Assembly: GCA_041662745.1 (NCBI GenBank)
Contig: JBAZRV010000001.1
Location: forward strand, 120,001 to 152,000
DNA: 32,000 nucleotides
Reading direction: 5' to 3'
Source of the DNA: Patescibacteria group bacterium
GTDB taxonomy: Bacteria > Patescibacteriota > Patescibacteriia > 2-01-FULL-39-33
Of this stretch, positions 14 to 23,870 are shown in pieces (position 1 is the stretch's first letter; the number at the start of each line of letters is the position of its first letter). The position numbers and the translations under genes were made by a program. Under the pieces are notes generated by a model. It saw only the letters and a program-made list of their open reading frames with translations. It made no database searches and was not told the origin of the DNA.

Positions 14-3000
14 TTAATCTTTTAAGTTAGGATTGTATCTAAATAAAGCTTCTCGGCCGTCTTTATAACCATCGCCGTCACTGTCGGCATTAGCCGGTTG
101 AGTATTATAGATGTTAGTCTCATCGCTATCGGCCAGACCATCTTTATCGCTATCAATAAAACCGGCATCGTTCCTGATATAATCATTCTCAAAGCTTGAT
201 TGGATAATGATTAATCGGTTCTTCCATTTTTCCCCAAAAATATCAGCTGCTTCCTGCTCGCTAATATATTTCAAATTATTATTGCCAAAAACCATGTAAA
301 CTCTGGGACTATTATCAAAACTAATCAAGTTTGATCCGGGATTAGCCCTAACATGATCCCCTTCGGTTAACGCATCAAAGGTTGCTTGGTTGATTACTTC
401 TACTTTTTGTTGCGCCCAAGCGCCGGTATGCCAAGTCCAATAAGTCGCCTCGTTAACATATAAATGCCTTTTATTATCGTCAGTCACATGATAAACAGCT
501 GGATTGTTTGCTACTTTTATCATTCTGCCGGCAGTATAAATTCCCTTCCCAACCGTTGAAGCCGTCGAACTGCTTTCAATAATTGAACTGCCACACGGCT
601 GGCTCTCGGCCGGCCTCGTGCTGTTTTGTTTACAGCCGTGACTATCGGTGCAGGTTCTAATCTGCGTACCATTAGAACAAGCCATCCAAGCCGTGCAACC
701 CCACTTAGGCGTACAGGCTGAAGCGCAGGTTTGAGAAAGCGCCGGCCTATTGGCAACCGTACCGCAACTGCTTGAATCGGCGCATGTTCTGGTTTGATTA
801 TTGCCGGAACAAGCAGACCAAGAGCCACAAGTCCAATTTTCCGTACAATCCGATCCGCTTGAAGCGCAGGTTTGAGAAAGTGCCGGTCTGTTGGCAACCG
901 TACCGCAACCATTACTGTCAGTGCAGGTCCTGATCTGGCTATTATTAGAACAAGCAGACCAAGAACCACAAGTCCAATTTTCCGTGCAACCGGAAGCTGT
1001 CGTTGGTTTGATTTTAATTGCAATATCCTTTGAGAAACTGGGTATTGATCCGGTTAATACTCCGCCGACGGTCTGAACCTGCCCCTCGCTAATCAAACCG
1101 CCCGTTCCCCAAGTATTATAATATTGTATTTTGTAAGTACCGGCGCTAAGGCCGGGTAAAGTGAAAGTAGTATTGCTTATAACTCCATTGTTTTCTAATC
1201 CATACTGACTCCCGATATCATAAACCCATAAGTAAGCGGAATTATTTCCAACTAAACTGATATTTTGCAAAATATGAGAATTAAAAGCAACTGAAGTGGG
1301 ACAGCTGAAAGAATAATCTTTGATATAAAACCAATCGCGGCCGGTATTTTTAACCTGGATTGTGTGTGTTCCGGCCGGGATAGAAGCCTCCAATTCCAGA
1401 TTTGAGGCTCCGGCGGCCGGCGCCAATGAGGCAGCCACCACCCCATCAACCAAAATCTCCATGCTGCTCGGCAAATAAGCGTAATTGGAAACAGAGGGAA
1501 TAATAAGCTTGATAGTTGCCGGCGCATCAAAATTTGTATGAAAAATTGGATCGGAACGAAGGCTTTCTTGGATTGTTCCATGGAGATTAACGGTCATTTT
1601 TTCAAAATCTTCTATTTGCCCGTACTGATCAACATTAAATATTCGCTGTTGAGGCACATCATAAAAATTAATAAGGCCGGGAAGATTAGAACGAACAACA
1701 GTCTCTCTGGCCATCGTTTGAGTGGTTACCTGCACCTCAGTATTTATAAGGCCCTCATCGCCCCAAGTCTCGCCGTCCATAAAAAGGAATGGCGGTTTGA
1801 AAAGTTGATATAACCTTAAACTGCCACCGACATAAGAGGCGTACCAAATATGGGCTGATGATTTTAAAAACAACGATTCCCATATAATATTATGAAGATG
1901 CAATCCTTCCGCTAATTGCGAACGATACGGTTCGGAGAAGGAAGAATAAGTGAGTTCCGGCGCGTCATCGTCAGCTCCTAAACCAAATTCACCCGTAAAA
2001 ATCGGCTTGCCATACTGACGAAGTTTTTCTGTTGATGATTTAAGATAAGCGAAAATATCAGTGGTATAGGAATGAAGCTGTATTATATCCATATTGGACA
2101 ACGACCAAAACGGTGTTTCGTTGGCTTCAGTGTATCCGGCCTCAACGCTGGTAGTAATGGGGTGGTCAAAAGGATCAAGCTCCTTGATAAACCGCGCCAT
2201 CTCCTCATGCCAAGCAACGATAGCGTTTCGGTTGCTGGCGGCTCCGCTGGAATACATCACCTCATTAAATAATTCCCAACTTTGGACGGACGTGGAATAA
2301 CCCCAGCGGGCAATAATATAACGATATTTATTTTTGGTTAGACGAATTGCTTCTGCGTCGGTAAAAAATTGTTGCGGGTTGGTCAGCCAACCGCCATAAT
2401 CTGAATTAGCGCTGTTATAAGGATTATTGCGCCACTCGTCATAATTAAGAAATTGCTGAAAATATTGCAAAACAAGCTGAATGGCAACACCATTTTGTTC
2501 GGCAAGCTCAATAACCCTGTCTAATCGCCAAGAAATTTCAAGGCCGTATTGACCAACGCCATGATAATAGGGCGGCGGGCTGGTAATATTTTTGGGAGTC
2601 CATTCAATATTTTCTCCGGTATTATAACTGCTCATCCAAACTCTTTCCCAAGTAACGCCATTATCATGCATTTTTTGAAAATGAGCTGTCCACCAGGCTA
2701 GGCCGGTATTGTTACCGGCGCAAATTTGATTATAGCCAATAGGGGCAAATTGTTCTCCTGTTGTCCGTCGCAACAAAGAATGATCGCGTGAATCTATGCG
2801 GATAAAACCCTTTTTTGCCGAGGAGACGCATTGAAAACTATTGGCGCCTGGAATAGTCTGGGTGCCAATGCTGTCAGTCACACTAATGGTATAACTATGC
2901 GTGCCGAATTGGGTGGGAGCAAAACGAGCTTTCCAAGAAGGATTACGGCCATTGCCATAACGTTCGGGATTGCCGGCTGTAATATCATATTCCATATAAT

Positions 3001-3370
3001 AAAAAGCAGGGACAACCTTACTTGTTCCATCCGGTTGGATAAAAGTCACATCCACCTTTATCTGGTCGGCATCAAAAGGATTTTTATAAGTCGCGGTCTC
3101 AGAAGGATTTGAATAATTTCCTTCCAAAGTAAAGGTTAATTCAAATTTTTCATATTGGCCGATACTGTTTGAGTTTTGGGATTGGGAAATAACCGGATTA
3201 TCACCCGTCAATGCTTGAGCCACATTAATCTGTCTTGCTAGGCCAAACCCAAAAAACATTAAAATTAAAGTAATAAATAAAAAAACAGCTGGCCATAAAA
3301 ACTTGGCTATAGCTGTTTCAATTTTGTTACGACCGTTTAATTTCTTTATTTTCCGTGAAAATAAAGCCAT
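14..3370 (-). CDS. Secreted multidomain glycoside hydrolase (GH5-like catalytic domain) with Cys-rich repeats and a TSP3-like Ca-binding tail
   Basis: 1118-aa ORF. N-terminal membrane/signal anchor FLWPAVFLFITLILMFFGFGLA. GH5 hallmarks WELFNE (acid/base NE) and FTGEFG (nucleophile Glu). Ig-like N-terminal region resembling DUF5060-type domains. Three tandem six-Cys modules. C-terminal DxDxDG runs (DSDKDGLADSDE, DSDGDGYKDG). Confidence 0.8.
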   Translation of the reverse strand: MALFSRKIKKLNGRNKIETAIAKFLWPAVFLFITLILMFFGFGLARQINVAQALTGDNPVISQSQNSNSIGQYEKFELTFTLEGNYSNPSETATYKNPFDADQIKVDVTFIQPDGTSKVVPAFYYMEYDITAGNPERYGNGRNPSWKARFAPTQFGTHSYTISVTDSIGTQTIPGANSFQCVSSAKKGFIRIDSRDHSLLRRTTGEQFAPIGYNQICAGNNTGLAWWTAHFQKMHDNGVTWERVWMSSYNTGENIEWTPKNITSPPPYYHGVGQYGLEISWRLDRVIELAEQNGVAIQLVLQYFQQFLNYDEWRNNPYNSANSDYGGWLTNPQQFFTDAEAIRLTKNKYRYIIARWGYSTSVQSWELFNEVMYSSGAASNRNAIVAWHEEMARFIKELDPFDHPITTSVEAGYTEANETPFWSLSNMDIIQLHSYTTDIFAYLKSSTEKLRQYGKPIFTGEFGLGADDDAPELTYSSFSEPYRSQLAEGLHLHNIIWESLFLKSSAHIWYASYVGGSLRLYQLFKPPFLFMDGETWGDEGLINTEVQVTTQTMARETVVRSNLPGLINFYDVPQQRIFNVDQYGQIEDFEKMTVNLHGTIQESLRSDPIFHTNFDAPATIKLIIPSVSNYAYLPSSMEILVDGVVAASLAPAAGASNLELEASIPAGTHTIQVKNTGRDWFYIKDYSFSCPTSVAFNSHILQNISLVGNNSAYLWVYDIGSQYGLENNGVISNTTFTLPGLSAGTYKIQYYNTWGTGGLISEGQVQTVGGVLTGSIPSFSKDIAIKIKPTTASGCTENWTCGSWSACSNNSQIRTCTDSNGCGTVANRPALSQTCASSGSDCTENWTCGSWSACSGNNQTRTCADSSSCGTVANRPALSQTCASACTPKWGCTAWMACSNGTQIRTCTDSHGCKQNSTRPAESQPCGSSIIESSSTASTVGKGIYTAGRMIKVANNPAVYHVTDDNKRHLYVNEATYWTWHTGAWAQQKVEVINQATFDALTEGDHVRANPGSNLISFDNSPRVYMVFGNNNLKYISEQEAADIFGEKWKNRLIIIQSSFENDYIRNDAGFIDSDKDGLADSDETNIYNTQPANADSDGDGYKDGREALFRYNPNLKD
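584..988 (-). repeat. Three tandem coding repeats (141, 132, 132 nt), each encoding a six-cysteine module
   Basis: Units start at 988, 847 and 715 on the minus strand. They encode CTENWTCGSWSACSNNSQIRTCTDSNGCGTVANRPALSQTCAS, CTENWTCGSWSACSGNNQTRTCADSSSCGTVANRPALSQTCAS and CTPKWGCTAWMACSNGTQIRTCTDSHGCKQNSTRPAESQPCGS. Units 1 and 2 are also highly similar at DNA level. Confidence 0.9.
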
Positions 3371-3533: not shown

Positions 3534-3607
3534 TCGGGGTGACACGACTCGAACGTGCGACTTCTTGCTCCCAAAGCAAGCGCTCTAGCCAACTGAGCTA
3601 CACCCCG
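3534..3607 (-). tRNA. tRNA-Pro (anticodon UGG)
   Basis: Folds by hand as a 74-nt cloverleaf: CGGGGTG/CACCCCG acceptor, GCTC..GAGC D arm, anticodon stem CTTGC/GCAAG with loop TTTGGGA, T loop TTCGAGT. No encoded CCA. Confidence 0.95.
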
Positions 3608-3702: not shown

Positions 3703-4016
3703 TGCCGAGGGCGAGAATTGAACTCGCGACACAAAGATTTTCCATATGCTTGCTTGAGTTTCCTCAAGGATTGGACTATTTCATCTTCGTATTCTTACGA
3801 ACTTAGAAGTCGGGCGCTAATGTGAGATTATTGTTGGGACTCACTCACTAGTCTCTACACCTTTTCCGGAAATTTTACCCGCCGGAACTTGGCTCGAGAT
3901 TGCCTATTCGTTAAAAACGAATTTAGGTTTCCTCGAATTCACCCGATTTTCATTTTAAGGTTTCCCTTAAACGGACCAAAAATCAGTCTTCTGCTCTACC
4001 ACTGAGCTACCTCGGC
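3703..4016 (-). tRNA. tRNA-Phe (anticodon GAA) interrupted by a group I intron; exon 1 = 4016..3985, exon 2 = 3742..3703
   Basis: The joined exons give GCCGAGGTAGCTCAGTGGTAGAGCAGAAGACTGAAAATCTTTGTGTCGCGAGTTCAATTCTCGCCCTCGGCA. This is a canonical 72-nt tRNA with anticodon loop CUGAAAA and a body typical of bacterial tRNA-Phe. The mature sequence is the same for any of the three ambiguous junction placements. No encoded CCA. Confidence 0.9.
3743..3984 (-). ncRNA. Group I intron, subgroup IC3-like, 242 nt, no internal ORF
   Basis: P1 is exon GACU with intron GGUC (U.G wobble at the splice site). P10 is exon GAAAA with intron UUUUU, immediately 5' of the guide sequence. P2 is UUUAAGG-GAAA-CCUUAAA. 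P3 is UCGGGUG/CGCCCGA. P4 is UUCGAGG/UCUCGAG. P5 is CCU[AA]AUUCG/CGAAUAGG. P6 is UUCCGG/CCGGAA. P7 is GACU/AGUC. P8 is UUCGUA-AGAA-UACGAA. P9 is CUUGAG-GAAA-CUCAAG. Conserved strings GAGCCAAG, AAGGUGUAGAGACUAG and AGUCCAAU are present, and the terminal nucleotide is G. Confidence 0.85.
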
Positions 4017-4104
4017 AAATTAGCTTATAGCTAATGGCCAATAGCTTATAGTAATTTATTAAAAACTATATGCCATACGCCATGAGCCATATGCTTTTTC
4101 GCTG

Positions 4105-4178
4105 TGCGCATACCAAGATTCGAACTTGGGACCTCGTCATTATCAGTGACGCGCTCTAACCAACTGAGCTATATGCGC
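4105..4178 (-). tRNA. tRNA-Ile (anticodon GAU)
   Basis: 74-nt cloverleaf: GCGCATA/TATGCGC acceptor, anticodon stem CGTCA/TGACG with loop CTGATAA, T arm CCAAG-TTCGAAT-CTTGG. No encoded CCA. Confidence 0.95.
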
Positions 4179-4720: not shown

Positions 4721-6195
<1,475 letters not shown>

Positions 6196-8429: not shown

Positions 8430-8564
8430 ATTCTTTGTTTAATAATAAACCGATAACACTTTCACAAATTCCAGCAAAAGCGGAATAACTGCGAAGTAAG
8501 TTATCAAGGTTCATGGGTTTTTCTACCCTTCACCTGTGTATAATTATAGCAAATCAAAACAAAC

Positions 8565-8594
8565 TTGTCAAGAGGATGAAAAATCAAGTATAAT
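8565..8594 (+). promoter_or_regulatory. Candidate promoter of the tandem ATPase gene
   Basis: TTGTCA-N18-TATAAT, about 45 nt upstream of the ATG at 8641. It lies inside the GTG-extended ORF of the track, which argues against that extension. Confidence 0.4.
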
Positions 8595-8640
8595 AACAAT
8601 AAGAAAGACAAAAAACTATCTCTTACACTACACATCATAT

Positions 8641-11600
8641 ATGACTGATACTTTAGGACCATCACTGGAAGACCTTATGACGGGAGAGGCAACCGAAGAA
8701 GAATCGGCCGGAGAAAAACTCCAACAGAAATTGACGCAAATAAAAATCAAGGAAAAAGAGGACGAGGTGGCGAAAAACGCCGACGCCTTGGGTTTGCCTT
8801 ATATTAATTTAGTCGGTTTCCCTATTTCTCCCGACGCGCTAAGCTCTATTGCTGAAGCAGCGGCCAAAGCCGCTCAAGCGATTTGTTTTTTCAATAACGG
8901 TTCGGAGTTGCGCGTCGGTTGCGTAAATTATAATGATGAAGTCAAAAAAATAGTGGCTGACTTGCAAGAAAAATTCCACGCCAATGTCCTGCCTTATCTT
9001 ATTTCCCAACACAGTTTTGAACGCTCGGCTAAATTATATGACTCTCTGCCTAAAATCACCCGACTGGTGGGCGGAGTGGAAATAAAAAAAGAAGATATTG
9101 AGCGTTTTGAAAAAGAAATAACCACTTTCAAAGATTTAAATGAAAAAATAAATAAAGTTAGCATCACTGACGTAGTGGCGATTATTTTGGCAGCCGGCCT
9201 TAAGGCCGAAGCTTCGGATGTCCATATTGAAGCCGAGGAGAAAGGCATCATAGTGCGCTTGCGCGTGGATGGCGTTTTGCATGATTCGGCCATGATTGAA
9301 AAAGATAAATGGAAAAAAATAATTGCTCGCCTTAAAGTTTTGGCGCGAGTCAAAATCAATATTGATGACAAGCCCCAAGACGGCCGTTTCACTATTTTTT
9401 TAGAAGATGACGCCGTGGATGTCAGAACATCCTTCCTGCCGACTAATTTTGGCGAGAGCGTGGTTATGCGTTTACTGCATTCCCAGTCAGTCGCCCTGTC
9501 TTTTGAACAGCTGGGTTTATTGCCGGCGGCCTTTAAAACATTGGAGGCGGAAATTAAAAAACCCAACGGCTTAATCTTGACTGCCGGCCCTACCGGCTCG
9601 GGTAAAACCACTACCCTGTATGCAATTCTCAATAAACTCAATCATCCGGACGTAAAAATCATCACTTTGGAAGATCCGATTGAATATCGCCTTAAGGGCA
9701 TTAACCAATCACAGGTAGACCCCAAGAAAGATTATACTTTTGCCAAGGGCTTGCGTTCTATTTTGCGCCAAGATCCGGATATTGTAATGGTTGGCGAAAT
9801 TCGCGACAATGAGACGGCTGATATCGCCACTCAAGCGGCCCTGACCGGCCACCTGGTGCTTTCTACCGTCCATACCAACGATGCGGCCGGCGTGATCCCG
9901 CGCTTAATGGATATGGGCATTAAACCCTTCTTTATTGTTCCGTCCATTAACGCCGTTATCGGCCAACGCTTGGTGCGTAAACTTTGCGAGAAATGCAAAC
10001 AACCGCATCAAATTACAGAAGAGGAAAAAACCACCATAGAGAAGATTTTGGCGACCATCTCGCCCAAATCGGGCATTGATGTTCCGGCCAACCTGCCCCA
10101 AATGTACGAACCCGGTCCGGGTTGCGAGACTTGTGGCGGCATCGGCTATAAGGGCCGCATCGGCATCTATGAAATTTTCACCATGACCGACAATATCAAA
10201 ACCTTGACTATGGCCGGAGCGGCGGCTTTTGAAATTCTCAAACAAGCGATTGAAAACGGCATGATTACCATGTTGCAAGACGGCATCATTAAATCTTTAA
10301 ACGGCGTTACTGATGTGCAAGAAGTTTTCCGCGTTATCGGCAAATTGGATTATGTGGAAGAACTTTATGATATTGTCATTACTCAAACAATCGGCCGTGG
10401 CATCAGTTTGACTGCCAAAGAATTAATAAAAGGCGAGGAACTATCCAAAAACTTAAAACAAATCCAAGAAAGCTTAGAAAATCTGCCCGCCAAAGAATTA
10501 ACGGCTCTATTAATGGCTGCAGCGCTTAAAGCGGATGCCGGCGATATTCATATTGAACCGACCGATACCGGCGTTAAGGTGCGCTTCAGAATTGATGGCA
10601 TCTTATATGATATGGCTACGCTGGATAAAAGCCAATACCTGCCGGTTTTATCCAATATGAAAATTTTAGCCGGCATGCCCACCAATATTAAAAAGGCGGC
10701 TTGGGACGGACGGTTCGGCATCTTTACGCCACAAGCTAAATTGGATTGTCGCATTTCCATTATCTCCGGCGGTTACGGTGAAACAATCGTTATCCGTATT
10801 TTATCGGCGCAAGCCGCCAGCCTGAGAGTTGAGGATTTGGGTATGCGCGAGTATTCTTTAAGGTTGCTGCAAGGGTCAATGGAAAAGACTAAGGGTATTA
10901 TTGTCACTACCGGGCCGACGGGCTCGGGCAAAACCACTACCCTGTATGCCCTGCTTAATCAACTTAACAAACCGGACACCAAGATTATTACCATAGAAGA
11001 TCCGATTGAGTATCATTTGGCCGGCGTAATGCAGACGCAAATTGATGAGGCTCAAGGCTACACTTTTGCCGCGGCCATGCGTTCCTTGTTGCGTCAAAAT
11101 CCCAACATCATGATGATCGGAGAAATCCGCGATAGCGAGACGGCTAAAACAGCGATTGAAGCGGCTTTGACCGGCCACTTAGTCTTATCCACCATCCACA
11201 CCAATTCCGCGGCCGGCGCCTTCCCGCGTTTCTTGGGGTTAGGCATTGAACCTCATATTTTAGCCAACTCCTTAGAGTGCACTATTGGCCAACGTTTAGT
11301 CAGAAAAATCTGTCCTTATTGCAAACAGCCGGTTGAGCTTAATCCGGAGATTGCTGGGGAGGTGGAAAAAATAATCAAAAGCATCAATACCAAATCGGGA
11401 GCCAAAATACCTGATAAACCGACTTATTTCAAAGCGGTTGGTTGCGAAAAATGCGGCGGTTTGGGTTACAAAGGACGTTTAGGCATCTATGAAGTCATAC
11501 CGAATACCGCTGAAATGCAAAAAGTGGTGCAAGGACCGGCGGTTACCAATTTGGAAATTGAAGCCTTAGCCGTTAAAGAAGGGGTAGTTCTAATGCTGCA

Positions 11601-11667
11601 GGACGGTATCCTAAAGGCTATGGCCGGAGAAACAACAGTGGAAGAAGTATTCCGAGTAGCCAAATAG
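8641..11667 (+). CDS. Tandem-duplicated PilB/GspE-family secretion ATPase (N-terminal T2SSE_N-like domain plus two complete ATPase modules)
   Basis: Each motif occurs twice. Walker A GPTGSGKTTT at nt 9586 and 10912. Asp box ITLEDPIEY / ITIEDPIEY. Walker B DPDIVMVGEIRD / NPNIMMIGEIRD. His box TGHLVLSTVHTN / TGHLVLSTIHTN. Tetra-Cys CEKCKQ..CETCGGIGYKGR / CPYCKQ..CEKCGGLGYKGR. Both modules end EVFRV. The start at ATG 8641 is preferred over GTG 8536. Confidence 0.85.
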   Translation: MTDTLGPSLEDLMTGEATEEESAGEKLQQKLTQIKIKEKEDEVAKNADALGLPYINLVGFPISPDALSSIAEAAAKAAQAICFFNNGSELRVGCVNYNDEVKKIVADLQEKFHANVLPYLISQHSFERSAKLYDSLPKITRLVGGVEIKKEDIERFEKEITTFKDLNEKINKVSITDVVAIILAAGLKAEASDVHIEAEEKGIIVRLRVDGVLHDSAMIEKDKWKKIIARLKVLARVKINIDDKPQDGRFTIFLEDDAVDVRTSFLPTNFGESVVMRLLHSQSVALSFEQLGLLPAAFKTLEAEIKKPNGLILTAGPTGSGKTTTLYAILNKLNHPDVKIITLEDPIEYRLKGINQSQVDPKKDYTFAKGLRSILRQDPDIVMVGEIRDNETADIATQAALTGHLVLSTVHTNDAAGVIPRLMDMGIKPFFIVPSINAVIGQRLVRKLCEKCKQPHQITEEEKTTIEKILATISPKSGIDVPANLPQMYEPGPGCETCGGIGYKGRIGIYEIFTMTDNIKTLTMAGAAAFEILKQAIENGMITMLQDGIIKSLNGVTDVQEVFRVIGKLDYVEELYDIVITQTIGRGISLTAKELIKGEELSKNLKQIQESLENLPAKELTALLMAAALKADAGDIHIEPTDTGVKVRFRIDGILYDMATLDKSQYLPVLSNMKILAGMPTNIKKAAWDGRFGIFTPQAKLDCRISIISGGYGETIVIRILSAQAASLRVEDLGMREYSLRLLQGSMEKTKGIIVTTGPTGSGKTTTLYALLNQLNKPDTKIITIEDPIEYHLAGVMQTQIDEAQGYTFAAAMRSLLRQNPNIMMIGEIRDSETAKTAIEAALTGHLVLSTIHTNSAAGAFPRFLGLGIEPHILANSLECTIGQRLVRKICPYCKQPVELNPEIAGEVEKIIKSINTKSGAKIPDKPTYFKAVGCEKCGGLGYKGRLGIYEVIPNTAEMQKVVQGPAVTNLEIEALAVKEGVVLMLQDGILKAMAGETTVEEVFRVAK

Positions 11668-11686
11668 ATTTATAACAGCTGAAAGT

Positions 11687-11714
11687 AAAAACTCCGAGAC
11701 TGTTCGGAGTTTTT
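11687..11714. terminator. Bidirectional intrinsic terminator between convergent genes
   Basis: aaaaactccga-gactgt-tcggagttttt; stem flanked by an A-run and a T-run. Confidence 0.7.
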
Positions 11715-11750
11715 ATATTAAAAATATTATTTTTATTTAATTCCTAAAGA

Positions 11751-12275
11751 CTAATCCATATGAATCATCCTTTGGGGATTATAAGCTGGCTTTTTGCCGT
11801 AAACAGCTATGCCATGATTAATTATCTTCTGGTCTTTCTCTTGAGCGTGCCATCTTTCCTTAAGCTCTTCGTACGACAAATAGACGTAAGCGAAGGAATA
11901 AGGATCTTCAAAAAATATTTTATCTTTATCGTAGCCGATGGCGATAGCCCAATGGCCGTCACGGTAACTGTCGGTATAATCAATTTTCTCAAAACTCCAA
12001 GCTTGTAACAGTAACATAACGGGAATCTTCTTATCAAGATACTTCTTTAATTCTTTAACGGTTAGGCTTCGCGAATCAGTCTTTAAACCGTATTTTTTGA
12101 AAACCGCTACCAGAGGGTTTATCAATGTTCCTTCTTTTTTATTGGTTTTAGCACATTTAATAAGCGCCTCTTCACGCACTTCTAGGCCGTAATAGAGCAA
12201 GACCGCCTGCAGGGCCTTGGCGCCGCAATCATATTCGTAAGTCTGTATGACCCTGGGAAAATTCAATTGCTTCAT
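11751..12275 (-). CDS. Stand-alone papain-like cysteine peptidase, C39-like
   Basis: 174 aa. Candidate catalytic Cys in QTYEYDCGAKALQAVLLYYG and His in DGHWAIAIGYD. Size and order match single-domain C39-type peptidases. Confidence 0.65.
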   Translation of the reverse strand: MKQLNFPRVIQTYEYDCGAKALQAVLLYYGLEVREEALIKCAKTNKKEGTLINPLVAVFKKYGLKTDSRSLTVKELKKYLDKKIPVMLLLQAWSFEKIDYTDSYRDGHWAIAIGYDKDKIFFEDPYSFAYVYLSYEELKERWHAQEKDQKIINHGIAVYGKKPAYNPQRMIHMD

Positions 12276-15306: not shown

Positions 15307-17178
15307 TTAAGGAATAATCAATAATTCTGAAGTGGTGGTCGCTACTACTCCGATTAAACACACTGCTTGCCAGGGCCTGTAAACAGAAGAAAAAGTGGTT
15401 GTTGCCGTATGTCCGTCAGAATAATCAACAATATAATTAAATGATGCGCTTACCCCTTTATGGGAAACCTCGGTGCATTTTTGTTCTCCTGGTTTTAAAT
15501 CGTTACTCTCAATAATTTTAGTAGGAAGAGGGTCTTTCCACCCCCAAACCTTCGGTTTTGTTCTGGTGGCAGTGCGTCCATCATTAATTCCCCAAAAATC
15601 AAAGTATAATTTATCGCCCTCTATTCTGGCTTGGATTAAAATGTAATTGCCGGTATCGTTTTTAAATCTTAAATCCGGCTTGGGATCATAAATTGTCGCA
15701 TCAACTCCCGGTAAGCCATTTTCTAAATAATAAGTTACATTGTAAGAATGGTTCTGTCGTTCCAAAATAGGCAAACCGGAGGCTAAAGCGGCGCGAAAAA
15801 CCGTAGTTCCTATCTGGCATAATCCGCCGCCGTATTCTGCCGTAGTTTTATTGCCTTTAATCACTAATTCGGGAAAATAACCGTTAGCCGCGTCTACCGG
15901 CAATAAGGCTTTAATTAAGGAAAACTCCTCATCCGGCTTAATCAACAAGCCATGCAGCTTGGCGGCGCCGTTTTTAATGTTTTTGCGGCGATTAGTCGGG
16001 CTGCCGGCGAATGATGATTGTCCGGTACCGATAATTTCTTTAATGCCAAGATCATTAACCTGATCGGTTGTTACCTCAGGATAAACTTCTTTGGTGATTA
16101 TGGTTATCTGATTAACAGAATAGCTATTGTTAATTATTTTTTGATTAAAATCATTATAGGCTTCTTCTTTATCAGCTTCCAATCCGTTTTGATGAGTTGA
16201 TAACTTATTCACTTTGCCGTCTTTTATTTCCAAAGAAGCGTTTTTAGCCGGCAGATCTAACTCTGGGCTGATATTTAATTTAAACCAATCAAAAAATTTA
16301 TCTTGATTAATGCCAACGGCTATTTTATTACCTATTTTTTGGAATTCTATCAATTGGCTTAGGCTTTTTTTGCTTAAAATCCATCTTTTATCCTGATAAG
16401 TAAATTCTGTACTGGAGGCGTTAAGGATGGTTTGTATTTCATTCTGCTTATTACTTACTTCTATTTGCTTTATTTGCGGTTGCGAAATAATCGGATTAAC
16501 TTTTATTGGCCTGTTTTCTAATTGATTAAGGTTATCCTTTATTTCTTTGATAATACCGTTATAATCGATAAGTAACCCTTGTTTTTCCGGTAAAATCGTT
16601 ATTTGGCAATTATTTTTTTCACATTCAATATTAGGAGCGGAATTTATTGCTGGCTGCTCTAATGATTTAAATTGTTGCTTTAATAAATTAATTAATAATT
16701 CTTCGTTTAATTTATAACTGGCTGATAATTTCTTATGGCCGGAAAGTACATCTAATTGCTGAACAATATTTAAAAATAAATTATTATTATGGCCTAATTG
16801 AAAATTACCATATACTGTCTGATGAATATCAAAAAATAATAAATCAACTCCCGAAACATCCGGATCTTCCGGTATTTCTAAAGGTGAAATTTTTTCCTGA
16901 TTATCACTTTGATAGATAAAACTGAAGCCATCTTGGCTTATTTTATTAGTCTTATTTTCTATTTTGTCTAATGCTTGACTAATAGTTAAATTTGACAAGT
17001 CAGTTGAGCTTATACGACTGCGAGGGAAAAATTTAACAGTATAAACTAATTCAAAAAAAATAATAAAAACAAACAAAATTAAAAAAATAACGGCGACAGC
17101 AATTATTACTAACCAGTGGCCGCTTAATTTATTATTGATCTTACTTGACTGTATTTTCTTCAGTAAATCTTCAAGCAT
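15307..17178 (-). CDS. VanW-family protein with N-terminal membrane anchor
   Basis: TM segment WLVIIAVAVIFLILFVFIIFF. C-terminal VanW-like core reads YGGGLCQIGTTVFRAALASGLPILERQNHSYNVTYY. Confidence 0.8.
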   Translation of the reverse strand: MLEDLLKKIQSSKINNKLSGHWLVIIAVAVIFLILFVFIIFFELVYTVKFFPRSRISSTDLSNLTISQALDKIENKTNKISQDGFSFIYQSDNQEKISPLEIPEDPDVSGVDLLFFDIHQTVYGNFQLGHNNNLFLNIVQQLDVLSGHKKLSASYKLNEELLINLLKQQFKSLEQPAINSAPNIECEKNNCQITILPEKQGLLIDYNGIIKEIKDNLNQLENRPIKVNPIISQPQIKQIEVSNKQNEIQTILNASSTEFTYQDKRWILSKKSLSQLIEFQKIGNKIAVGINQDKFFDWFKLNISPELDLPAKNASLEIKDGKVNKLSTHQNGLEADKEEAYNDFNQKIINNSYSVNQITIITKEVYPEVTTDQVNDLGIKEIIGTGQSSFAGSPTNRRKNIKNGAAKLHGLLIKPDEEFSLIKALLPVDAANGYFPELVIKGNKTTAEYGGGLCQIGTTVFRAALASGLPILERQNHSYNVTYYLENGLPGVDATIYDPKPDLRFKNDTGNYILIQARIEGDKLYFDFWGINDGRTATRTKPKVWGWKDPLPTKIIESNDLKPGEQKCTEVSHKGVSASFNYIVDYSDGHTATTTFSSVYRPWQAVCLIGVVATTTSELLIIP

Positions 17179-17398
17179 TATCGGTTTGAAAAATTTTTTT
17201 TAATAAATTCTTAGTTTGATCCTCTTGGTATTTATCATCAATTTGTTCTGGCAAAATACTGATTTTAACCGTTTCGCCGTCTTTTATAATCCAATTGATT
17301 TCTTTTTTCGGCCAAAGCAATTCTCTTCCATCTTCAAATTTTATCACTAAGAAATCACCCGCCTGCTCGCTAATCACTCCCTTTTCCTGATTAATCAT
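17171..17398 (-). CDS. Small protein, DUF3006-like
   Basis: 75 aa. GVISEQAGDFLVIKFEDGRELLWPKKEI..KDGETVKISI resembles the DUF3006 pattern. Its stop overlaps the vanW start by 8 nt. Confidence 0.45.
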   Translation of the reverse strand: MINQEKGVISEQAGDFLVIKFEDGRELLWPKKEINWIIKDGETVKISILPEQIDDKYQEDQTKNLLKKIFQTDNA

Positions 17399-17401
17399 AA
17401 A

Positions 17402-17839
17402 TTACTCATTTATTTGCCTTATTTTTATTCCTGATGTTTTATATTTTTTTGGTAATTTTATCGTTAATACGCCATTCTTAAGATTAGCATCTATTTTTTT
17501 CTGGTCAACTTCCCGCGGTAAAACAATTGAACGGGAAAAAGCCCCCCAATAACATTCTTGAGAATAATAATCTTCCTTAATTGCTTCATCTTCCTGTTGG
17601 CGCGAACCCCTGATAGTCAATAAATCATTAGAAATAGAAATATCCAGATCCTCCGGTTTGACTCCGGCAACCGTAGTTCTGACTATAATATCGTTTTTTG
17701 TTTCATAAACATCGCAAGATAATTGGGCTTCCCCGTCAAACCATTGGGGATTATTGCCAAAATACCCAATAAAATCATTGTTTTCTTGAGTATTCATGCT
17801 TTCCATACTTGTCTTTGTTTTTAAGAAAGAATTAGCCAT
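17402..17839 (-). CDS. Hsp20/alpha-crystallin small heat-shock protein
   Basis: Alpha-crystallin domain DVYETKNDIIVRTTVAGVKPEDLDISISNDLLTIRG...FSRSIVLPREVDQKKIDANLKNGVLTIKLPK. Confidence 0.85.
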   Translation of the reverse strand: MANSFLKTKTSMESMNTQENNDFIGYFGNNPQWFDGEAQLSCDVYETKNDIIVRTTVAGVKPEDLDISISNDLLTIRGSRQQEDEAIKEDYYSQECYWGAFSRSIVLPREVDQKKIDANLKNGVLTIKLPKKYKTSGIKIRQINE

Positions 17840-17950
17840 ATGTTTATATTATAACAGGATATTAAAAATAAATATAGACTAATACTTGACTTTATTATAT
17901 TTTAATCTTGAGGTATCTATTATATAATATAGCTATATTAATAAATTTTT

Positions 17951-18373
17951 ATGTTTAAAGAAAACCAACCATTAATAAATGAAACGGATACCATTATTGG
18001 TCCATCAGTAAAAGTCGAAGGTGATTTCATTACTGAAGGCAATATTATTGTTGAAGGCATGATTTGCGGCACAATCAAAACAAGTAAAAATCTTAAAGTC
18101 GGTCCTGATTCAAAAATATTCGCCAATATTGGAGCAGAAAATGCTTTAGTTGCCGGAGAGATACAAGGTAATATTAATATAAAAAATAAATTGGAATTAA
18201 CTTCTACCGCCAGGATTTACGGAGATATAAAAACTGGCATTTTATCAATTGCCGGCGGTGCTTTAGTTAATGGCAAATGCACTATGAATGACAATAAAGA
18301 CCGCAGTCCCAAACCAGAATCAACTAAACAGAAAAAAATGGAATTAAAACCGCCGCTAATCGATAAGCAATAA
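17951..18373 (+). CDS. Bactofilin (polymer-forming cytoskeletal protein)
   Basis: Beta-helical repeat pattern IIGPSVKVEGDFITEGNIIVEGMICGTIKTSKNLKVGPDSKIFANIGAENALVAGEIQGNI...IYGDIKTGILSIAGGALVNGKCTM, with a disordered basic tail. Confidence 0.85.
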   Translation: MFKENQPLINETDTIIGPSVKVEGDFITEGNIIVEGMICGTIKTSKNLKVGPDSKIFANIGAENALVAGEIQGNINIKNKLELTSTARIYGDIKTGILSIAGGALVNGKCTMNDNKDRSPKPESTKQKKMELKPPLIDKQ

Positions 18374-18383
18374 ATTATTTATG

Positions 18384-18410
18384 CCCGCGGTTAAAACGCG
18401 GGTGTATTTT
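18384..18410 (+). terminator. Candidate terminator after the bactofilin gene
   Basis: cccgcg-gttaaaa-cgcggg followed by tgtatttt. Confidence 0.4.
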
Positions 18411-18418
18411 AATTGATT

Positions 18419-19174
18419 ATGTATTATTACATTTACGATAATTATTTAAATGAGGCCAAATACAGCAATACTCTTTCCAAAATAGAGTCACGGTTGGCTG
18501 ATTTTGGAATTAATGGAAAAATAACCAGAATCTCCCCTTTAAAAAATCTTAAATTAACTTTACGCGATGATTTAAATCAAGGCATAAAAACAGTGGTAGT
18601 AGTAGGCAATGATAAGACTTTAAATCAAATAATCAATCTTTTACCTAATTTATCATTAACTTTAGGATTTATACCGGTTGGACCTAATAATAATTTATGT
18701 AATATTTTTGGCATTCCGGAAGGGGAAGAGGCATGTAATATCTTATCGCAAAGAATAATAGAAAAAATAAGTCTCGGCTTAATAAATGATCATTATTATT
18801 TTATTTCTTACTTAGAAATGTCCGGTGATAATATCAATATTAATTGTAATGATGATTATTATATTAGTGTTGATAAAAAAAACAGTATTATAACTGTTAG
18901 TAATATTTATTACGGGGAATATACCAATAAAATTCCTTTAGTTAATAATAATAATTGGCTTAATTTAGTAATTAAAAATGTTAATAAAAAAATATTTTCT
19001 CAATCAAAAGAATTTTTCAGTTATTTTAAAGCGAAAAAAATAAAAATAGACAGTGATAAATCAATTCCCATACTTTTAATTGATGAGAAAAGAATCATTA
19101 AAAATCCAATAAAAGTAAATTTAGCGCCAGAAAAAATAAATCTAATTGTAGGAAAGAATAGAAAATATAATTAA
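18419..19174 (+). CDS. Diacylglycerol/lipid kinase-fold (DAGK_cat / YegS-like) protein with degenerate catalytic motifs
   Basis: Family pattern ..TVVVVGNDKTLNQIINLL...LGFIPVGPNNNLCNIFGIP. The canonical GGDGT is replaced by GNDKT and GTGND by GPNNN. The TTG at 18413 is an alternative start. Confidence 0.55.
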   Translation: MYYYIYDNYLNEAKYSNTLSKIESRLADFGINGKITRISPLKNLKLTLRDDLNQGIKTVVVVGNDKTLNQIINLLPNLSLTLGFIPVGPNNNLCNIFGIPEGEEACNILSQRIIEKISLGLINDHYYFISYLEMSGDNININCNDDYYISVDKKNSIITVSNIYYGEYTNKIPLVNNNNWLNLVIKNVNKKIFSQSKEFFSYFKAKKIKIDSDKSIPILLIDEKRIIKNPIKVNLAPEKINLIVGKNRKYN

Positions 19175-19205
19175 AAAACCCCTCCTTTAGTAGGAGGGGT
19201 TTTTT
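19173..19205. terminator. Bidirectional intrinsic terminator
   Basis: aaaaaacccctcct-ttagt-aggaggggtttttt lies between convergent genes. Confidence 0.75.
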
Positions 19206-19207
19206 AA

Positions 19208-20347
19208 TTACTGCCTGATAGGCATAATTAAATAGAGATAATTATTGTCTTCACCTCTGATTATACAAGGATTATTAGGATCACTAATGGAAAATTCTGC
19301 TTTTTCCGAAGTTAATACTTGTAATCCATCTAATAAATATTTATAATTCAGAATAATTTCCCCGCCTTGGCCGATTTTTTCCATTTCTACCACTGATTCA
19401 TTTTCACCTGTTTGAGAAGATGAAGAAGTGATTATTAATTCATTGGGAGATTTATTATAATCTAATTTTATATCAAATACGCCGTTTTTTACAAATAAAC
19501 TGGCAGTTTTTACCGCTTTAATTAATTCATTAATATTAACCTTTAATTTATTTGGACATTCTATGGGTATGATTTGATTATAATCGGGATATTGTCCGTC
19601 AATTAAACGGGAAATAAATTCTACACCATTATAAACAAACATAATTTGATTTTCATTGGTGTAAATTTCTATATTCTCTATTACTTCTAAATTATCATCA
19701 TCTTTAAATACGCTTAAAATACGGGAAATCTCTTGCAGTGATTTGGCGGGAATAATGACTTTTTCATTATTATTTGATTTAGAATTTTTATTATTCTCAA
19801 TATAATCAATTTTTATCTCCGCTAAACGATAACTGTCAGTAGCGGCTAAAATTAATTTATTATCAGAAAAATCCATTAAAACACCGGATAATTCCGGCCT
19901 TAATTCGGAATTAGCGGCTGAAAAAAACACGCTATAAATGGCGTCTCGCAATTTTTTAGCGGAAATAATATAAGGGTTTTCTTTTTCAATTTTAGGTATT
20001 AAAGGAAAGTCAGAAGTATTTTGGCCTTTTATTTTAGTTTTTTGTTTTTGACATTGAACTTTTAATTCTTCATTAATCAATTCCAAATCAATCCGATCTT
20101 TAGGTAATAAAGAAATATAATTATTAAGTAACTTAGCGTCAATTGAAAATTCCCCGTTATTTTCCACTTTACTTCTAATATTAACAGTTACTCCAACCTC
20201 TAAATTAGTCGCTGATAAAGTTAAATTATTATTTTCAGCTTTAATTAAAATATTAGCCAATATTGGCAAATTAGAATTTTTTCCTGCTATATGGGAAGTA
20301 ATATTTATTGCTTGATTAAGATTTTCTTGAGTGCAAGATAATTTCAT
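19208..20347 (-). CDS. dnaN: DNA polymerase III beta sliding clamp
   Basis: 379 aa. Begins MKLSCTQENLNQAINITSHIAGKNSNLPILANILI and ends PCIIRGEDNNYLYLIMPIRQ. Lies directly downstream of dnaA. Confidence 0.9.
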   Translation of the reverse strand: MKLSCTQENLNQAINITSHIAGKNSNLPILANILIKAENNNLTLSATNLEVGVTVNIRSKVENNGEFSIDAKLLNNYISLLPKDRIDLELINEELKVQCQKQKTKIKGQNTSDFPLIPKIEKENPYIISAKKLRDAIYSVFFSAANSELRPELSGVLMDFSDNKLILAATDSYRLAEIKIDYIENNKNSKSNNNEKVIIPAKSLQEISRILSVFKDDDNLEVIENIEIYTNENQIMFVYNGVEFISRLIDGQYPDYNQIIPIECPNKLKVNINELIKAVKTASLFVKNGVFDIKLDYNKSPNELIITSSSSQTGENESVVEMEKIGQGGEIILNYKYLLDGLQVLTSEKAEFSISDPNNPCIIRGEDNNYLYLIMPIRQ

Positions 20348-20682
20348 ATTAGTATTTATAATAATATATATATAACTAATAATAGTAATAATGGACTGGT
20401 TAAAGTGTATAACTATTATTATATCTTATAGTTGTTGGATTTTATTGATAATTTACTTGTTGATAATAACTGCTTAATTTGATTTGATATCTTTATAATT
20501 TAGGTAAAAATTTATTACTTTATTTTTCCCCACTTAATAATCAAATTAATTCACTGTTTTAACACTCTTAAGTCACTTTATTATTAGTGATATCACCAAG
20601 TTATCCTAAAGTGGAAAAAATGAGGATAAGTTTTTTCCACTATTATAATTATTTATCACCAAGTTATCCACTAAATATATAA
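20348..20682. other. dnaA-dnaN intergenic region: AT-rich tract plus DnaA-box-like motifs (candidate oriC half with the unwinding element)
   Basis: TTATCCACT at 20664-20672 and TGAGGATAA at 20621-20629 each have 1 mismatch to TTATCCACA. TTATCCTAA is at 20601. A 16-nt direct repeat tatcaccaagttatcc occurs at 20591 and 20654. 20348-20560 is very AT-rich. Confidence 0.5.
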
Positions 20683-22098
20683 TTAAACGAATAATTTTTG
20701 CTTGATTATATTTACATCTTGCCTGATTTTTTCATTTATTTTAATAAGATTAATAATTTTATCGCAAGCATGTATAACAGTGGTGTGATCGCGCCCGCCT
20801 AATTCTTGGCCGATTACCGGATAGGATAATTTAAGCTCTTCCCGCATTAAATACATAATAATTTGGCGCGGTTCAGTTAAATTTTTCTTTCGGCAAGGGC
20901 TTATAATATTATCAATAGTTATATCATAATATTCAGAAACTAATTTAATTATATTTTTTGGGGTTAAATTGTTTTTTTGGTTATTACTGATTGTGGCCGC
21001 GGTAATCTGTTTAACCTCTTCTAAAGAAATAGAGCGATTTTGCAGTTGGGTTAAAGCAATAACTCTATTTAATACCCCTTCTAATTCCCGAATATTATTT
21101 CTAATTGACCCGGCTAAATATTCAATAATATTATACTCTAGTGTAGTATTTTTTTCTTTTAATTTCTCTTGAATAATTGCGATTTTTGTCTCTAAATCAG
21201 GAATGGAAATATCAACGATCATTCCCCATTCAAAACGAGAAATTAAACGCTGTTCAATATCCGGTATCGCTTTAGGCGGCCGATCAGAAGAAATAATAAT
21301 TTGTTTGTTATTTTGGTGTAATTCATTGAATATATTAAAGAAAATCTCCTCAGTTCTTTCTTTATTAGATAAAAATTGGATATCATCAATTAAAAGAACA
21401 TCCAAAGTCCTATATTTATTATTAAATTCTTCCATGGAGCGCTGGCCGTTACCGGAAAGATTGCGTACAGCTGTTAAATAATCATTGGTAAAATTTTCAC
21501 AAGTTGTATAAAAAACCTTAATTTCCTGGTTATTTTCCAATATTTTATTGCCAATAGCATGCATTAAATGGGTTTTACCCAATCCAACACCGCCATAAAT
21601 AAATAAGGGATTATAGGCTGTGCCAGGAGATTTTATTACTGCTAAAGCCGCAGCATGGGCTAAATCATTATTTTTTCCTACAATAAAAGTATTAAGAGTA
21701 TACTTATAATTTAATCCATTTTTATTATTAGGCAATTTTTCATTGCTTACCCGATTAGGCGATTCAAATATTTCTTTAATAGGAGTTGTTTTTTCATTGC
21801 TAATTATAACTTCTACTGGTTTAGTAAAAGCATTTTTATTTTGGGTTGATGACTCTATTTTATATTCAATTTCTTTTAAATTATGATTATTGGTTATATT
21901 TCTGATCGCTTTTAATATGGCGCTGTGATATTTTTTAGCCAAATATTCCTTAGTGAAAATATTAGGGACATTAATCACTACTTTATTATCATCATAACTA
22001 ACTATATTAGTATGCCTAAACCAAGTAGTAAAATTAGCTTTAGATAATAAAGTTTCTAATTCTCCTAAAGTGGCCTGCCAGAGTTCTTGTGGTGTCAT
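20683..22098 (-). CDS. dnaA: Chromosomal replication initiator DnaA
   Basis: Walker A GGVGLGKTHLMHAIGN, Walker B LLIDDIQFL, sensor/box VII region ISSDRPP, C-terminal DNA-binding GGRDHTTVIHACDKI. Confidence 0.95.
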   Translation of the reverse strand: MTPQELWQATLGELETLLSKANFTTWFRHTNIVSYDDNKVVINVPNIFTKEYLAKKYHSAILKAIRNITNNHNLKEIEYKIESSTQNKNAFTKPVEVIISNEKTTPIKEIFESPNRVSNEKLPNNKNGLNYKYTLNTFIVGKNNDLAHAAALAVIKSPGTAYNPLFIYGGVGLGKTHLMHAIGNKILENNQEIKVFYTTCENFTNDYLTAVRNLSGNGQRSMEEFNNKYRTLDVLLIDDIQFLSNKERTEEIFFNIFNELHQNNKQIIISSDRPPKAIPDIEQRLISRFEWGMIVDISIPDLETKIAIIQEKLKEKNTTLEYNIIEYLAGSIRNNIRELEGVLNRVIALTQLQNRSISLEEVKQITAATISNNQKNNLTPKNIIKLVSEYYDITIDNIISPCRKKNLTEPRQIIMYLMREELKLSYPVIGQELGGRDHTTVIHACDKIINLIKINEKIRQDVNIIKQKLFV

Positions 22099-22166
22099 AC
22101 TAAAATATTAATTAAGTAAAGGTATTAAAAGGAGTTTCTATTTAAGTTAATAACATTTTATCATAA

Positions 22167-22232
22167 TTATCCACAATTGGAAACCGATCAAAAAAAGAAA
22201 GAAAGGTTAAACTGTTAATAACTTGTGGATAA
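22167..22232. promoter_or_regulatory. Two perfect DnaA boxes in inverted orientation between dnaA and rpmH
   Basis: TTATCCACA at 22167-22175 and TGTGGATAA at 22224-22232, read directly. Confidence 0.75.
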
Positions 22233-22304
22233 TAATTTTTATTGACTTATAATAAAAAAAATGTTACTTTTACTTTAGTTATTAATAATCATTTTTAGTA
22301 TTTT

Positions 22305-22460
22305 ATGGCAACTAAAAGAACTTATCAACCACATAAAGTTAAAAGGGTTAAAAAACATGGTTTTAGAGCTAAAAACCGTACCCACACAGGTAAATTAGTC
22401 TTAAAAAGAAGAAGAGCCAAAGGAAGAAAGAAGTTGGTTATCTCGGCTGGATCTAAATAA
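22305..22460 (+). CDS. rpmH: 50S ribosomal protein L34
   Basis: 51-aa ORF missing from the track: [51 protein letters not shown]. Has the classic position upstream of rnpA. Confidence 0.9.
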
Positions 22461-22484
22461 TTATAATTTGGCTAAATTTACATT

Positions 22485-23074: not shown

Positions 23075-23083
23075 CTTAAAATT

Positions 23084-23833: not shown

Positions 23834-23840
23834 AGTAATT

Positions 23841-23868
23841 AAAAAACCCGGAAACTTCCGGGTTTTTT
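23841..23868. terminator. Bidirectional intrinsic terminator
   Basis: aaaaaacccggaaacttccgggtttttt lies between convergent yidC and the PBP gene. Confidence 0.75.
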
Positions 23869-23870
23869 AA

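Follow-up and report, generated by a model that had tools for sequence, protein, structure and literature searches.

The stretch of DNA analysed here, referred to below as the window, comprises 32,000 nucleotides (nt) of an ultra-small bacterium, a Patescibacteria group bacterium (assembly GCA_041662745.1, contig JBAZRV010000001.1, positions 120,001-152,000 of the forward strand). The subject of this report is one gene on its plus strand, the product of which is a secretion ATPase of the T2SSE family with two ATPase modules in a single polypeptide, and which we call the tandem ATPase. The open reading frame (ORF) runs from 8536 (GTG) or 8641 (ATG) to 11667, and the ORF listing shows no internal stop. 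ATG 8641 is the likely start codon, because a database protein (P0001, 100% identical over 1008 amino acids (aa) and registered as "GspE/PulE family protein [Patescibacteria group bacterium]") and its relatives measure 1003-1018 aa, and because a promoter-like site lies inside the extension that starts at GTG 8536. Residues are numbered below in the 1008-aa protein from ATG 8641.

Two ATPase modules in one chain

A first-pass annotation, made from the letters of this sequence, had described a single uninterrupted ORF with one N1 domain followed by two full ATPase modules, and the ORF listing together with the two-stretch profile matches bears out the single frame and the two modules. The Pfam T2SSE profile (PF00437) matches the protein in two stretches with 757.6 bits, compared with a cut-off of 24.9, and the best stretch (aa 174-564) spans profile positions 7-370 of 370; the NCBIfam models for GspE and PilB each match twice as well. 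When the two halves are aligned with each other by BLASTP, 180 of 374 positions are identical (48%, E 2e-134), and from Walker A to the His box the figure is 69 of 98 residues (70%), in agreement with the earlier impression of well over half. The likeness is also visible in the DNA, where positions 9581-9690 and 10907-11016 share 84 of 110 nucleotides. Recent intragenic gene conversion was considered as a source of this DNA similarity by counting identical codons at identical residues, with the expectation derived from codon usage, and the excess (92 of 182, with 78 expected; z about 2) is unconvincing.

In a model of the monomer made by AlphaFold2 (AF2), the mean predicted local distance difference test score (pLDDT) is 84.4 and the predicted template-modelling score (pTM) is 0.50. 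The best matches of this model in the PDB, found by Foldseek, are PilB/PilF cores with target-normalised TM-scores of 0.90-0.94 and 42-44% identity, and each of them spans one module (about 390 aligned columns). Every solved relative returned is a single-core chain. Members of the GspE/PilB branch normally carry one ATPase core per polypeptide, and the tandem ATPase carries two.

The catalytic residues of Geobacter PilB, as given by McCallum et al. (PMC5424180), were transferred to both modules through the alignment with 6OLJ/5TSG (Table 2); their conservation was counted in 120 homologues of the close family, and a distant set of 12 representatives, down to 40% identity, was inspected in addition. 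Walker A, the Asp box, the atypical Walker B with its catalytic Glu and the His box, which together characterize T2SSE ATPases, are found in both modules, as are the motifs ASDVHIE/AGDIHIE, GPTGSGKT (aa 316 and 758), EDPIE, GEIRD and TGHLVLST[VI]HTN. In the 120 homologues, both modules have every mapped residue either invariant or conserved to at least 90%, which covers the sites for binding and hydrolysing ATP, for sensing its gamma-phosphate from the N2D, for the pore lining and for zinc: among the arginines of the N2 domain (N2D), for example, R262 and R277 are invariant and R249 reaches at least 90% in module 1, and R691, R704 and R719 are all invariant in module 2. They are retained in the 12 distant representatives too, and some lineages carry GPTS[AS]GKT in module 2. 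The claim that no catalytic residue is degraded in either copy therefore stands for this protein and for the family to 40% identity, and both modules are, as far as their motifs tell, apparently catalytically competent.

Because of the Zn tetracysteine and the order N1, N2D, C-terminal domain (CTD), the sequence places the tandem ATPase in the T2SSE (PilT/VirB11-like) family and within its GspE/PilB branch; both sets of cysteines are invariant in the 120 homologues. PilT is not known to carry the tetracysteine Zn-binding insert. A finer name is harder to justify. The NCBIfam cut-offs are 675.65 bits for PilB (TIGR02538), 630.25 for GspE (TIGR02533) and 300 for ComGA (NF041000). The N1 domain with module 1 alone scores 473.9, 494.2 and 246.4 bits with these three models, respectively, and module 2 alone scores 385.4, 415.3 and 239.5 bits, all below the cut-offs; the whole protein exceeds them (848, 899 and 482 bits) by summation only. 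On these scores, the tandem ATPase cannot be filed as PilB, GspE or ComGA, and since the scores of the whole are sums over modules whose halves fail, the automatic naming of tandem proteins as PilB or GspE is unsafe. Databases label them "GspE/PulE family" or "PilB", and there is no tandem-specific NCBIfam model among the matches listed. Thus, the earlier designation as a PilB/GspE secretion ATPase holds at the level of the GspE/PilB branch, whereas PilB as a functional label is not established, the halves falling below the cut-offs and the locus being an orphan one.

The putative N1 domain occurs once. AF2 predicts an alpha/beta domain at aa 23-135, and the alignment to the NCBIfam PilB model begins at aa 19. 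Read by eye, the domain does not contain the RLG motif for cyclic di-GMP (motif from PMC5013675). The T2SSE_N profile (PF05157) gives faint or weak precomputed matches in homologues and is not among the Pfam matches listed for the tandem ATPase itself. Because three AF2 helices precede each N2D (aa 150-188 and 592-630), the duplicated unit is taken to extend over about aa 150-566 in its first copy and aa 592-1008 in its second, which is without an N1 domain. The segment aa 592-627 appears to be a copy of aa 150-185 in the model, a pairing made from the matching helix pattern and inspection by eye.

Between the modules lies a linker, which had been estimated at about 50 aa; it is present and measures 61 aa (aa 567-627). 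The first part of it, aa 567-591, has the motif G-K-x-D-Y-[IV]-x-x-L-Y-D-I-V-x-x-Q-T-x-G-R-G-I, and AF2 predicts a helix at aa 570-583 and a short strand at aa 587-589. The mean column entropy is 0.71 bits at aa 567-590, compared with 0.8-0.98 in the ATPase domains and 2.26 bits at aa 591-627, and G567, Y571, Y576, G585 and G587 are invariant in the 120 homologues. This segment has no counterpart in the single-module relatives, which end at ...EVxRV. Since the junction is as conserved as the catalytic domains and is predicted to be helical, it is modelled as a structured, conserved helix and not as a floppy tether.

Table 1. Features of the tandem ATPase gene and its product, with positions in the window
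Feature	Residues (aa)	Position	Strand	Basis
Promoter-like site TTGTCA-18 nt-TATAAT, 47 nt 5' of ATG 8641		8565..8594	+	Consensus match only, 11/12
Tandem T2SSE ATPase coding sequence (stop 11665-11667)	1008 aa + stop	8641..11667	+	ORF, profiles, identical P0001
Putative N1 domain, T2SSE_N/MshEN-like alpha/beta fold, single copy	23-135	8707..9045	+	PilB model from aa 19, AF2
Three helices before module 1 N2D, start of duplicated unit	150-185	9088..9195	+	AF2 helices 150-159, 163-170, 175-188
Module 1 N2D with R249, R262, R277	186-295	9196..9525	+	Mapped to Geobacter PilB R257/R271/R286
Module 1 CTD	296-566	9526..10338	+	Motifs mapped to Geobacter PilB; Foldseek
Fusion-specific junction	567-591	10339..10413	+	Entropy, invariant residues, AF2
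Variable three-helix segment before module 2 N2D	592-627	10414..10521	+	AF2 helices 592-603, 605-612, 617-630
Module 2 N2D with R691, R704, R719	628-737	10522..10851	+	Mapped to Geobacter PilB
Module 2 CTD	738-1008	10852..11664	+	Motifs mapped to Geobacter PilB
Terminator hairpin AAAAACUCCGAG-ACUG-UUCGGAGUUUUU		11685..11716	.	A-tract on one side, U-tract on the other

Table 2. Residues of Geobacter PilB and their equivalents in the two modules
Site	PilB	Module 1	Module 2
Walker A Thr/Lys	T327/K331	T318/K322	T760/K764
Asp-box Glu (Mg)	E357	E348	E790
Walker B Glu	E395	E386	E828
N2D arginines	R257/R271/R286	R249/R262/R277	R691/R704/R719
His box	T411/H413/H420	T402/H404/H411	T844/H846/H853
Pore loop	D398/E400	D389/E391	D831/E833
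Arg	R455	R446	R888
Zn tetracysteine (invariant in 120 homologues)		C449/C452/C495/C498	C891/C894/C935/C938

The tandem family and its origins

A protein search returned at least 120 clusters of 992-1029 aa, with 59-92% identity and 95-100% coverage. The clusters that carry an organism name belong to Patescibacteria lineages (Buchanan-/Falkowbacteria and Parcubacteria), the relative with 92% identity being from Candidatus Buchananbacteria; the only exception is P0083, which is labelled Planctomycetes and is probably mis-binned. A search of a 50%-identity library gave about 13 tandem representatives, down to 40% identity, against 15,735 T2SSE-family matches (E <= 1e-30), and by this measure of sequence diversity the tandem architecture is rare yet coherent. 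We also scanned one genome per GTDB species for the junction only, that is, the end of module 1, the linker and the start of module 2. At least 80 species genomes match the entire 115-residue junction with 45-90% identity, one of them being the closed 977-kb Falkowbacteria chromosome CP066698.1, and the junction-bearing assemblies are independent of each other (NCBI, JGI, ENA and Logan). Of 600 pattern matches, 514 pass tblastn; the true number can only be lower than 514, since single-module proteins also contain the seed pattern, at their C-terminus.

These data leave next to no room for the idea that the fusion is an artefact, in which faulty sequencing or assembly, or an overlooked stop or frameshift within the linker, made one gene out of adjacent paralogues. 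Nothing was found in support of it: in one related locus the tandem gene is divided into two ORFs (L044:7758-8477 and 8554-10782), with the break in its N-terminal part and not at the junction. A misjoin or missed stop is excluded because the in-frame junction, with its five invariant residues in aa 567-591, is conserved across independent assemblies, the species genomes that have it numbering at least 80 and the protein clusters at least 120; a collapsed gene pair is ruled out in the same way. Proteins that seem to consist of module 2 alone are apparent only, being fragments at contig edges. As for half-length proteins, P0143 fills a 1.9-kb contig and P0144 begins at a contig edge; together with P0133 and P0170, which were judged from match coordinates alone, they probably are truncated copies of tandem genes. 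The first-pass annotation had raised the question whether such fusions form a common subfamily that has already been described: the tandem is a common, conserved family of the Patescibacteria, and no description of it was found in the openly searchable literature.

It should be mentioned that the divided gene in L044 could reflect a frameshift, pseudogenisation or a sequencing error. Several database titles are also odd. Despite a Patescibacteria-type gene and synteny, L010, L013, L014 and about 30 further loci bear the title "uncultured Gammaproteobacteria bacterium", and L083 is titled "Candidatus Nanoarchaeia archaeon"; these titles look taxonomically wrong.

To place the duplication among single-module proteins, the separated modules and 30 single-module relatives were put into a neighbour-joining tree. 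In three proteins, P0126, P0128 (L084:3226-6213) and P0136 (L085:8001-11144), the protein's own two modules are sisters with 99-100% bootstrap, and the modules of P0128 are still 74.5% identical. This pattern suggests that tandem duplication has occurred at least three further independent times, or else that the modules are being homogenised by concerted evolution. [quoted passage not shown] In this protein, a platform-type domain and a half-dead tandem motor are combined within one chain.

Genomic surroundings

The first-pass annotation had noted that no pilin, PilC or PilM-Q genes flank the tandem gene, and this is confirmed on a wider scale: no gene for a pilin, PilC, PilM-Q or PilT lies within the 32-kb window, and a prepilin motif is absent from every frame of it. 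The neighbours are trmD, a KhpA-like KH protein, a stand-alone C39-like peptidase, tsaE, tsaD and a 16S rRNA gene, and the window also holds the dnaA-dnaN-rnpA-yidC origin region. For the family, ORFs were called in 84 loci (+/-10 kb), 79 of them with a complete tandem gene, and their products were clustered. No other T2SSE ATPase occurs in any of the 84, apart from contig-edge or split pieces of the tandem gene itself, and a prepilin-like ORF was found in one locus only (L044:16829-17365, 6 kb downstream of the split gene). Canonical pilus genes of the CPR, PilB and PilT included, are reported to co-localise (PMC6744442), and such co-encoding with PilC, PilM, PilN, PilO, PilT or pilins is found neither in the window nor in the 84 loci. 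The nearest single-module relatives are of the same kind: the six that were sampled all lie outside pilus clusters, several of them beside tsaE, tsaD or polA, and none is the PilB of a canonical pilus cluster. The tandem ATPase is therefore a member of a Patescibacteria lineage of "orphan" PilB-like ATPases that are encoded away from pilus clusters. Beside another orphan, the single-module PilB-like ATPase P0162, six consecutive small T4SS_pilin (PF18895) genes are located (L091:5825-8911).

What the family does have is a different neighbour. In 71 of the 79 loci (L004-L083), a polytopic membrane protein of about 328 aa is encoded directly upstream on the same strand, at position -1 and mostly with gaps of 0-20 nt; its gene is also found at L001:9017-9997, L003:8941-9963 and L087:5673-6986. 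Because the next gene upstream comes from at least six different families, the pair of ATPase and membrane protein has been retained while its flanks vary. The membrane protein gives a weak match to DUF7544 only (E 0.005-0.02), no NCBIfam match and no significant fold match in the PDB, with an AF2 model of pLDDT 82 and pTM 0.78. It is not a GspF/PilC homologue, and its position makes it a candidate partner of the tandem motor. Directly upstream of the single-module relative P0134, a member of this membrane-protein family is encoded as well (hmmsearch E 3.7e-58), in an FtsH/TsaE synteny like that of the tandem locus L003, and the pair therefore predates the duplication. Downstream, a Translin-family protein (PF01997, E 6e-20, 191 aa; L001:13020-13595) is encoded at +1 in about 64 of the 79 loci and a metallophosphoesterase (165 aa; L001:13601-14098) at +2 in about 52-63, both on the strand of the ATPase; neither is at that position in the window.

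The gene had also been credited with its own promoter and terminator, and candidates for both are present (Table 1): the promoter-like site is a consensus match only, and the hairpin at 11685-11716 has a minimum free energy of -17.3 kcal/mol (z -2.83), with 2 of 200 shuffled sequences folding equally well. The hairpin sits between the stop of the ATPase and the convergent gene of the C39-like peptidase and is common to both. This peptidase (11751-12275, minus strand, 174 aa) is a stand-alone protein with no ABC transporter attached; it is also found near the ATPase in the closest relative, L004, and not in the other loci.

Elsewhere in the window, a complete 16S rRNA gene (4721-6195, minus strand) is followed by tRNA-Ile, with no 23S rRNA inside the window, and then, after the 16S/tRNA region, by an ORF of 1118 aa with a DUF5060 domain (14-3370, minus strand); the rRNA genes thus appear unlinked. 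Downstream of the 16S gene there is also a group I intron (3752-4014, minus strand; full-length match to RF00028, 86 bits), which is flanked by tRNA-Ile(GAT) at 4104-4178 and tRNA-Pro(TGG) at 3534-3607 and the host gene of which is not evident. The possibility that it is a tRNA intron was rejected, since none of 625 spliced boundary combinations gave a tRNA in ARAGORN. Finally, the G+C content is 0.25-0.32 at 16000-24000, compared with 0.40-0.48 elsewhere in the window, a large drop for core genes. This low-G+C stretch contains the end of a VanW-domain gene (15307-17178) and genes for HSP20, a bactofilin, a diacylglycerol (DAG)-kinase-like protein, dnaN, dnaA, rnpA and yidC, and presumably is the replication-origin region.

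Proposed arrangement of the modules in a ring

How do two modules in one chain fit into a hexameric motor? We think it probable, with some reservation, that three chains form one pseudo-hexameric ring of six modules in which modules 1 and 2 alternate. This ring is our inference, the structure prediction having covered a single chain only. A ring closed by three chains would contain three N1 domains, half of the usual six. The rigid packing unit of PilB consists of an N2D and the CTD of the adjacent chain, and the ATP sites lie between such units (PMC5424180). The linker from the CTD of module 1 to the N2D of module 2 would tie together the two halves of one packing unit and would leave the hinge motions between units unhindered; the predicted character of the junction, a conserved, structured helix and not a tether, speaks for this arrangement. 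ATP turnover at all six sites would then drive a membrane partner through the pore, as has been proposed for PilB and PilC. A fresh tandem with identical modules would reproduce the ancestral homohexamer minus three N1 domains and would be functional at once. Our proposal is that the fusion could arise several times because a new tandem would work immediately, and the 74.5% identity between the modules of P0128 implies that a recent tandem is viable without time for a new ring-ring interface to evolve. In the alternating ring, opposite positions would be unlike, module 1 facing module 2, so that exact C2 symmetry would be impossible and C3 or pseudo-C2 cycles would be expected. C2 symmetry is the basis of the rotary model of PilB (PMC5424180), and hexamers of the PilT family occur in C2 and C3 conformations (PDB titles; PMC6858323).

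The most serious competitor, though an unlikely one, is a two-tier machine in the manner of KaiC, p97, NSF or ClpB, in which six chains form two stacked rings, one made up of module 1 and the other of module 2, one tier sitting on the membrane platform and the other acting as a second motor or a regulator. Tandem P-loop modules commonly stack as double rings, a linker of 61 aa is long enough, and the pTM of 0.50 leaves the arrangement unfixed; module 1 is also nearer to the single-module relatives than module 2 (mean identity 47% and 42%), which is compatible with different roles for the tiers. Such a machine, however, needs a new ring-ring interface each time, yet tandems appear to have arisen at least three more times, one of them recently by the identity of its modules (74.5%). 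The pore-loop D/E, possible contacts to the platform (PMC5424180), are kept in both modules, a weak argument as they fall within the Walker B segment, and no stacked T2SSE ring is among the solved structures returned. The four proteins resemble the tandem ATPase in having two P-loop modules per polypeptide by internal duplication, both able to bind ATP; they differ in belonging to other ATPase families and in forming two stacked hexameric rings of six chains.

Less probable still is an alternation of the F1 type despite intact motifs, in which one module hydrolyses ATP and the other binds nucleotide for structural or allosteric purposes; this could apply to either ring geometry. Across the whole family, module 2 diverges faster between lineages (43% identity, compared with 50% for module 1), and its Walker A variants mentioned above point in the same direction, as does module 1 of P0136 without its Walker A lysine, by which such rings would seem to tolerate three dead sites. 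On the other hand, no catalytic or gamma-phosphate-sensing residue is lost from either module in the 120 close and 12 distant members, and both modules are similarly constrained in the close family, with mean column entropies of 0.80-0.90 bits (module 1) and 0.96-0.98 bits (module 2). One kind of module without catalytic residues, as in F1, is thus not seen in the tandem family, and only the unrelated tandem P0136 has such a loss. F1/V1-ATPases, with their alpha3beta3 ring, and other alternating hetero-hexamers are otherwise a close parallel to the alternating ring that we propose, as six related P-loop modules of two kinds alternate in them; their chains are separate and one kind is dead, whereas in the tandem ATPase the two kinds are covalently joined and both have the catalytic residues.

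Several points weigh against the alternating three-chain ring and the scenario built around it. With a single-chain pTM of 0.50, the relative placement of the modules is not confidently predicted, and the conservation of motifs is evidence of constraint and not of activity. In the tree, the deep nodes of the main family are poorly supported, with a bootstrap of only 15% for a module-2 clade, and do not establish a single origin; only the three independent pairs are robust. The preference for internal duplication over a fusion of paralogues rests mainly on the lack of a second N1 and on the shared helices before the N2Ds. In the window and in its closest relatives L004 and L005, the gene does not have the membrane partner beside it; tblastn and a hidden Markov model of the family found no homologue in the window, and a word-index protein search returned 19 relatives, none on the 249-kb contig of the window. 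Moreover, a gene order conserved among fairly related genomes may be inherited synteny and not a functional link.

The tandem motor may power a type IV filament system whose genes lie elsewhere, or a separate machine based on the membrane protein encoded upstream. The latter idea can be taken further, at the price of becoming speculative: the tandem ATPase and the DUF7544-like membrane protein might constitute a hitherto unrecognised, pilin-independent membrane machine of the Patescibacteria and not a pilus motor, which we rather doubt. The motor of such a machine would be a T2SSE-type ring made up of three covalent dimers and acting on a platform unrelated to GspF/PilC. The machine may serve in the uptake or handling of nucleic acid or some other substrate, as the genes of the Translin family and for the metallophosphoesterase that usually follow the ATPase would suggest.

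Comparison with the known motors underlines what is unusual. PilB (Geobacter metallireducens 5TSG/5TSH/6OLJ, and the PilF core of Thermus thermophilus 5IT5/5OIU) has the same fold of N2D and CTD as each module and shares Walker A, the Asp box, the atypical Walker B, the His box, the N2D arginines, the pore-loop D/E and the Zn tetracysteine; the tandem ATPase likewise has a single N-terminal N1, a putative one. The tandem protein differs from it by two cores per chain, the 25-aa junction and half the N1 domains per core, by the separation of its gene from those for PilC, PilM, PilN, PilO, PilT and pilins in the 84 loci, and, if the proposed ring is correct, by the lack of exact C2 symmetry. GspE/EpsE (Vibrio 4PHT, 1P9R and 4KSR) ranks first by sequence in the PDB (E 2.4e-100) and among the NCBIfam models, with the same domain order N1-N2D-CTD(Zn); it differs in that the core is in tandem here and that GspL, GspF and a pseudopilin are not nearby. 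Patescibacteria have been reported to be without the secretin PilQ and a Gram-negative-type envelope (PMC6744442), and proposed heterohexamers of the PilT family, mentioned in PMC6711533, would resemble the alternating ring. The PilF of T. thermophilus (6F8L, 913 residues) is likewise a long GspE/PilB-family protein that owes its extra length to internal repetition. In this case, it is the N-terminal GSPII/N1 domain that is repeated, in three copies, with a single ATPase core, whereas in the tandem ATPase the core is repeated and N1 is single. PilF is also monocistronic, its gene lying at a distance from those for the rest of the pilus.

The gene itself is not new, its family being already well represented in public data. 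We found no description of a tandem T2SSE ATPase in the openly searchable full-text literature, including a 2024 review of PilB and a 2019 primer on how type IV filaments evolved, and what appear to be undescribed are the architecture, the two conserved live sites, the recurrent origin and the context outside pilus loci. For annotation, the consequence is practical: tandem proteins pass "equivalog" cut-offs by summation, and the names PilB and GspE assigned in this way are unreliable.

[quoted passage not shown] With a covalent dimer that occurs in nature and retains six active sites, modules 1 and 2 would be forced to alternate and opposite subunits to be unlike. It would permit Walker mutations in every second subunit, the same experiment that engineered linked ClpX rings allowed, and hence a test of sequential, rotary and concerted models. 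In a three-chain ring, the number of N1 domains per ring would be halved, which bears on how many contacts to a platform or to GspL/PilM-like proteins a motor needs. Beyond the motor itself, the gene marks a widespread orphan lineage of PilB-like ATPases, the usual partner of which is a membrane protein without an assigned function, in a group of bacteria whose attachment to hosts and uptake of DNA are thought to depend on such machines.

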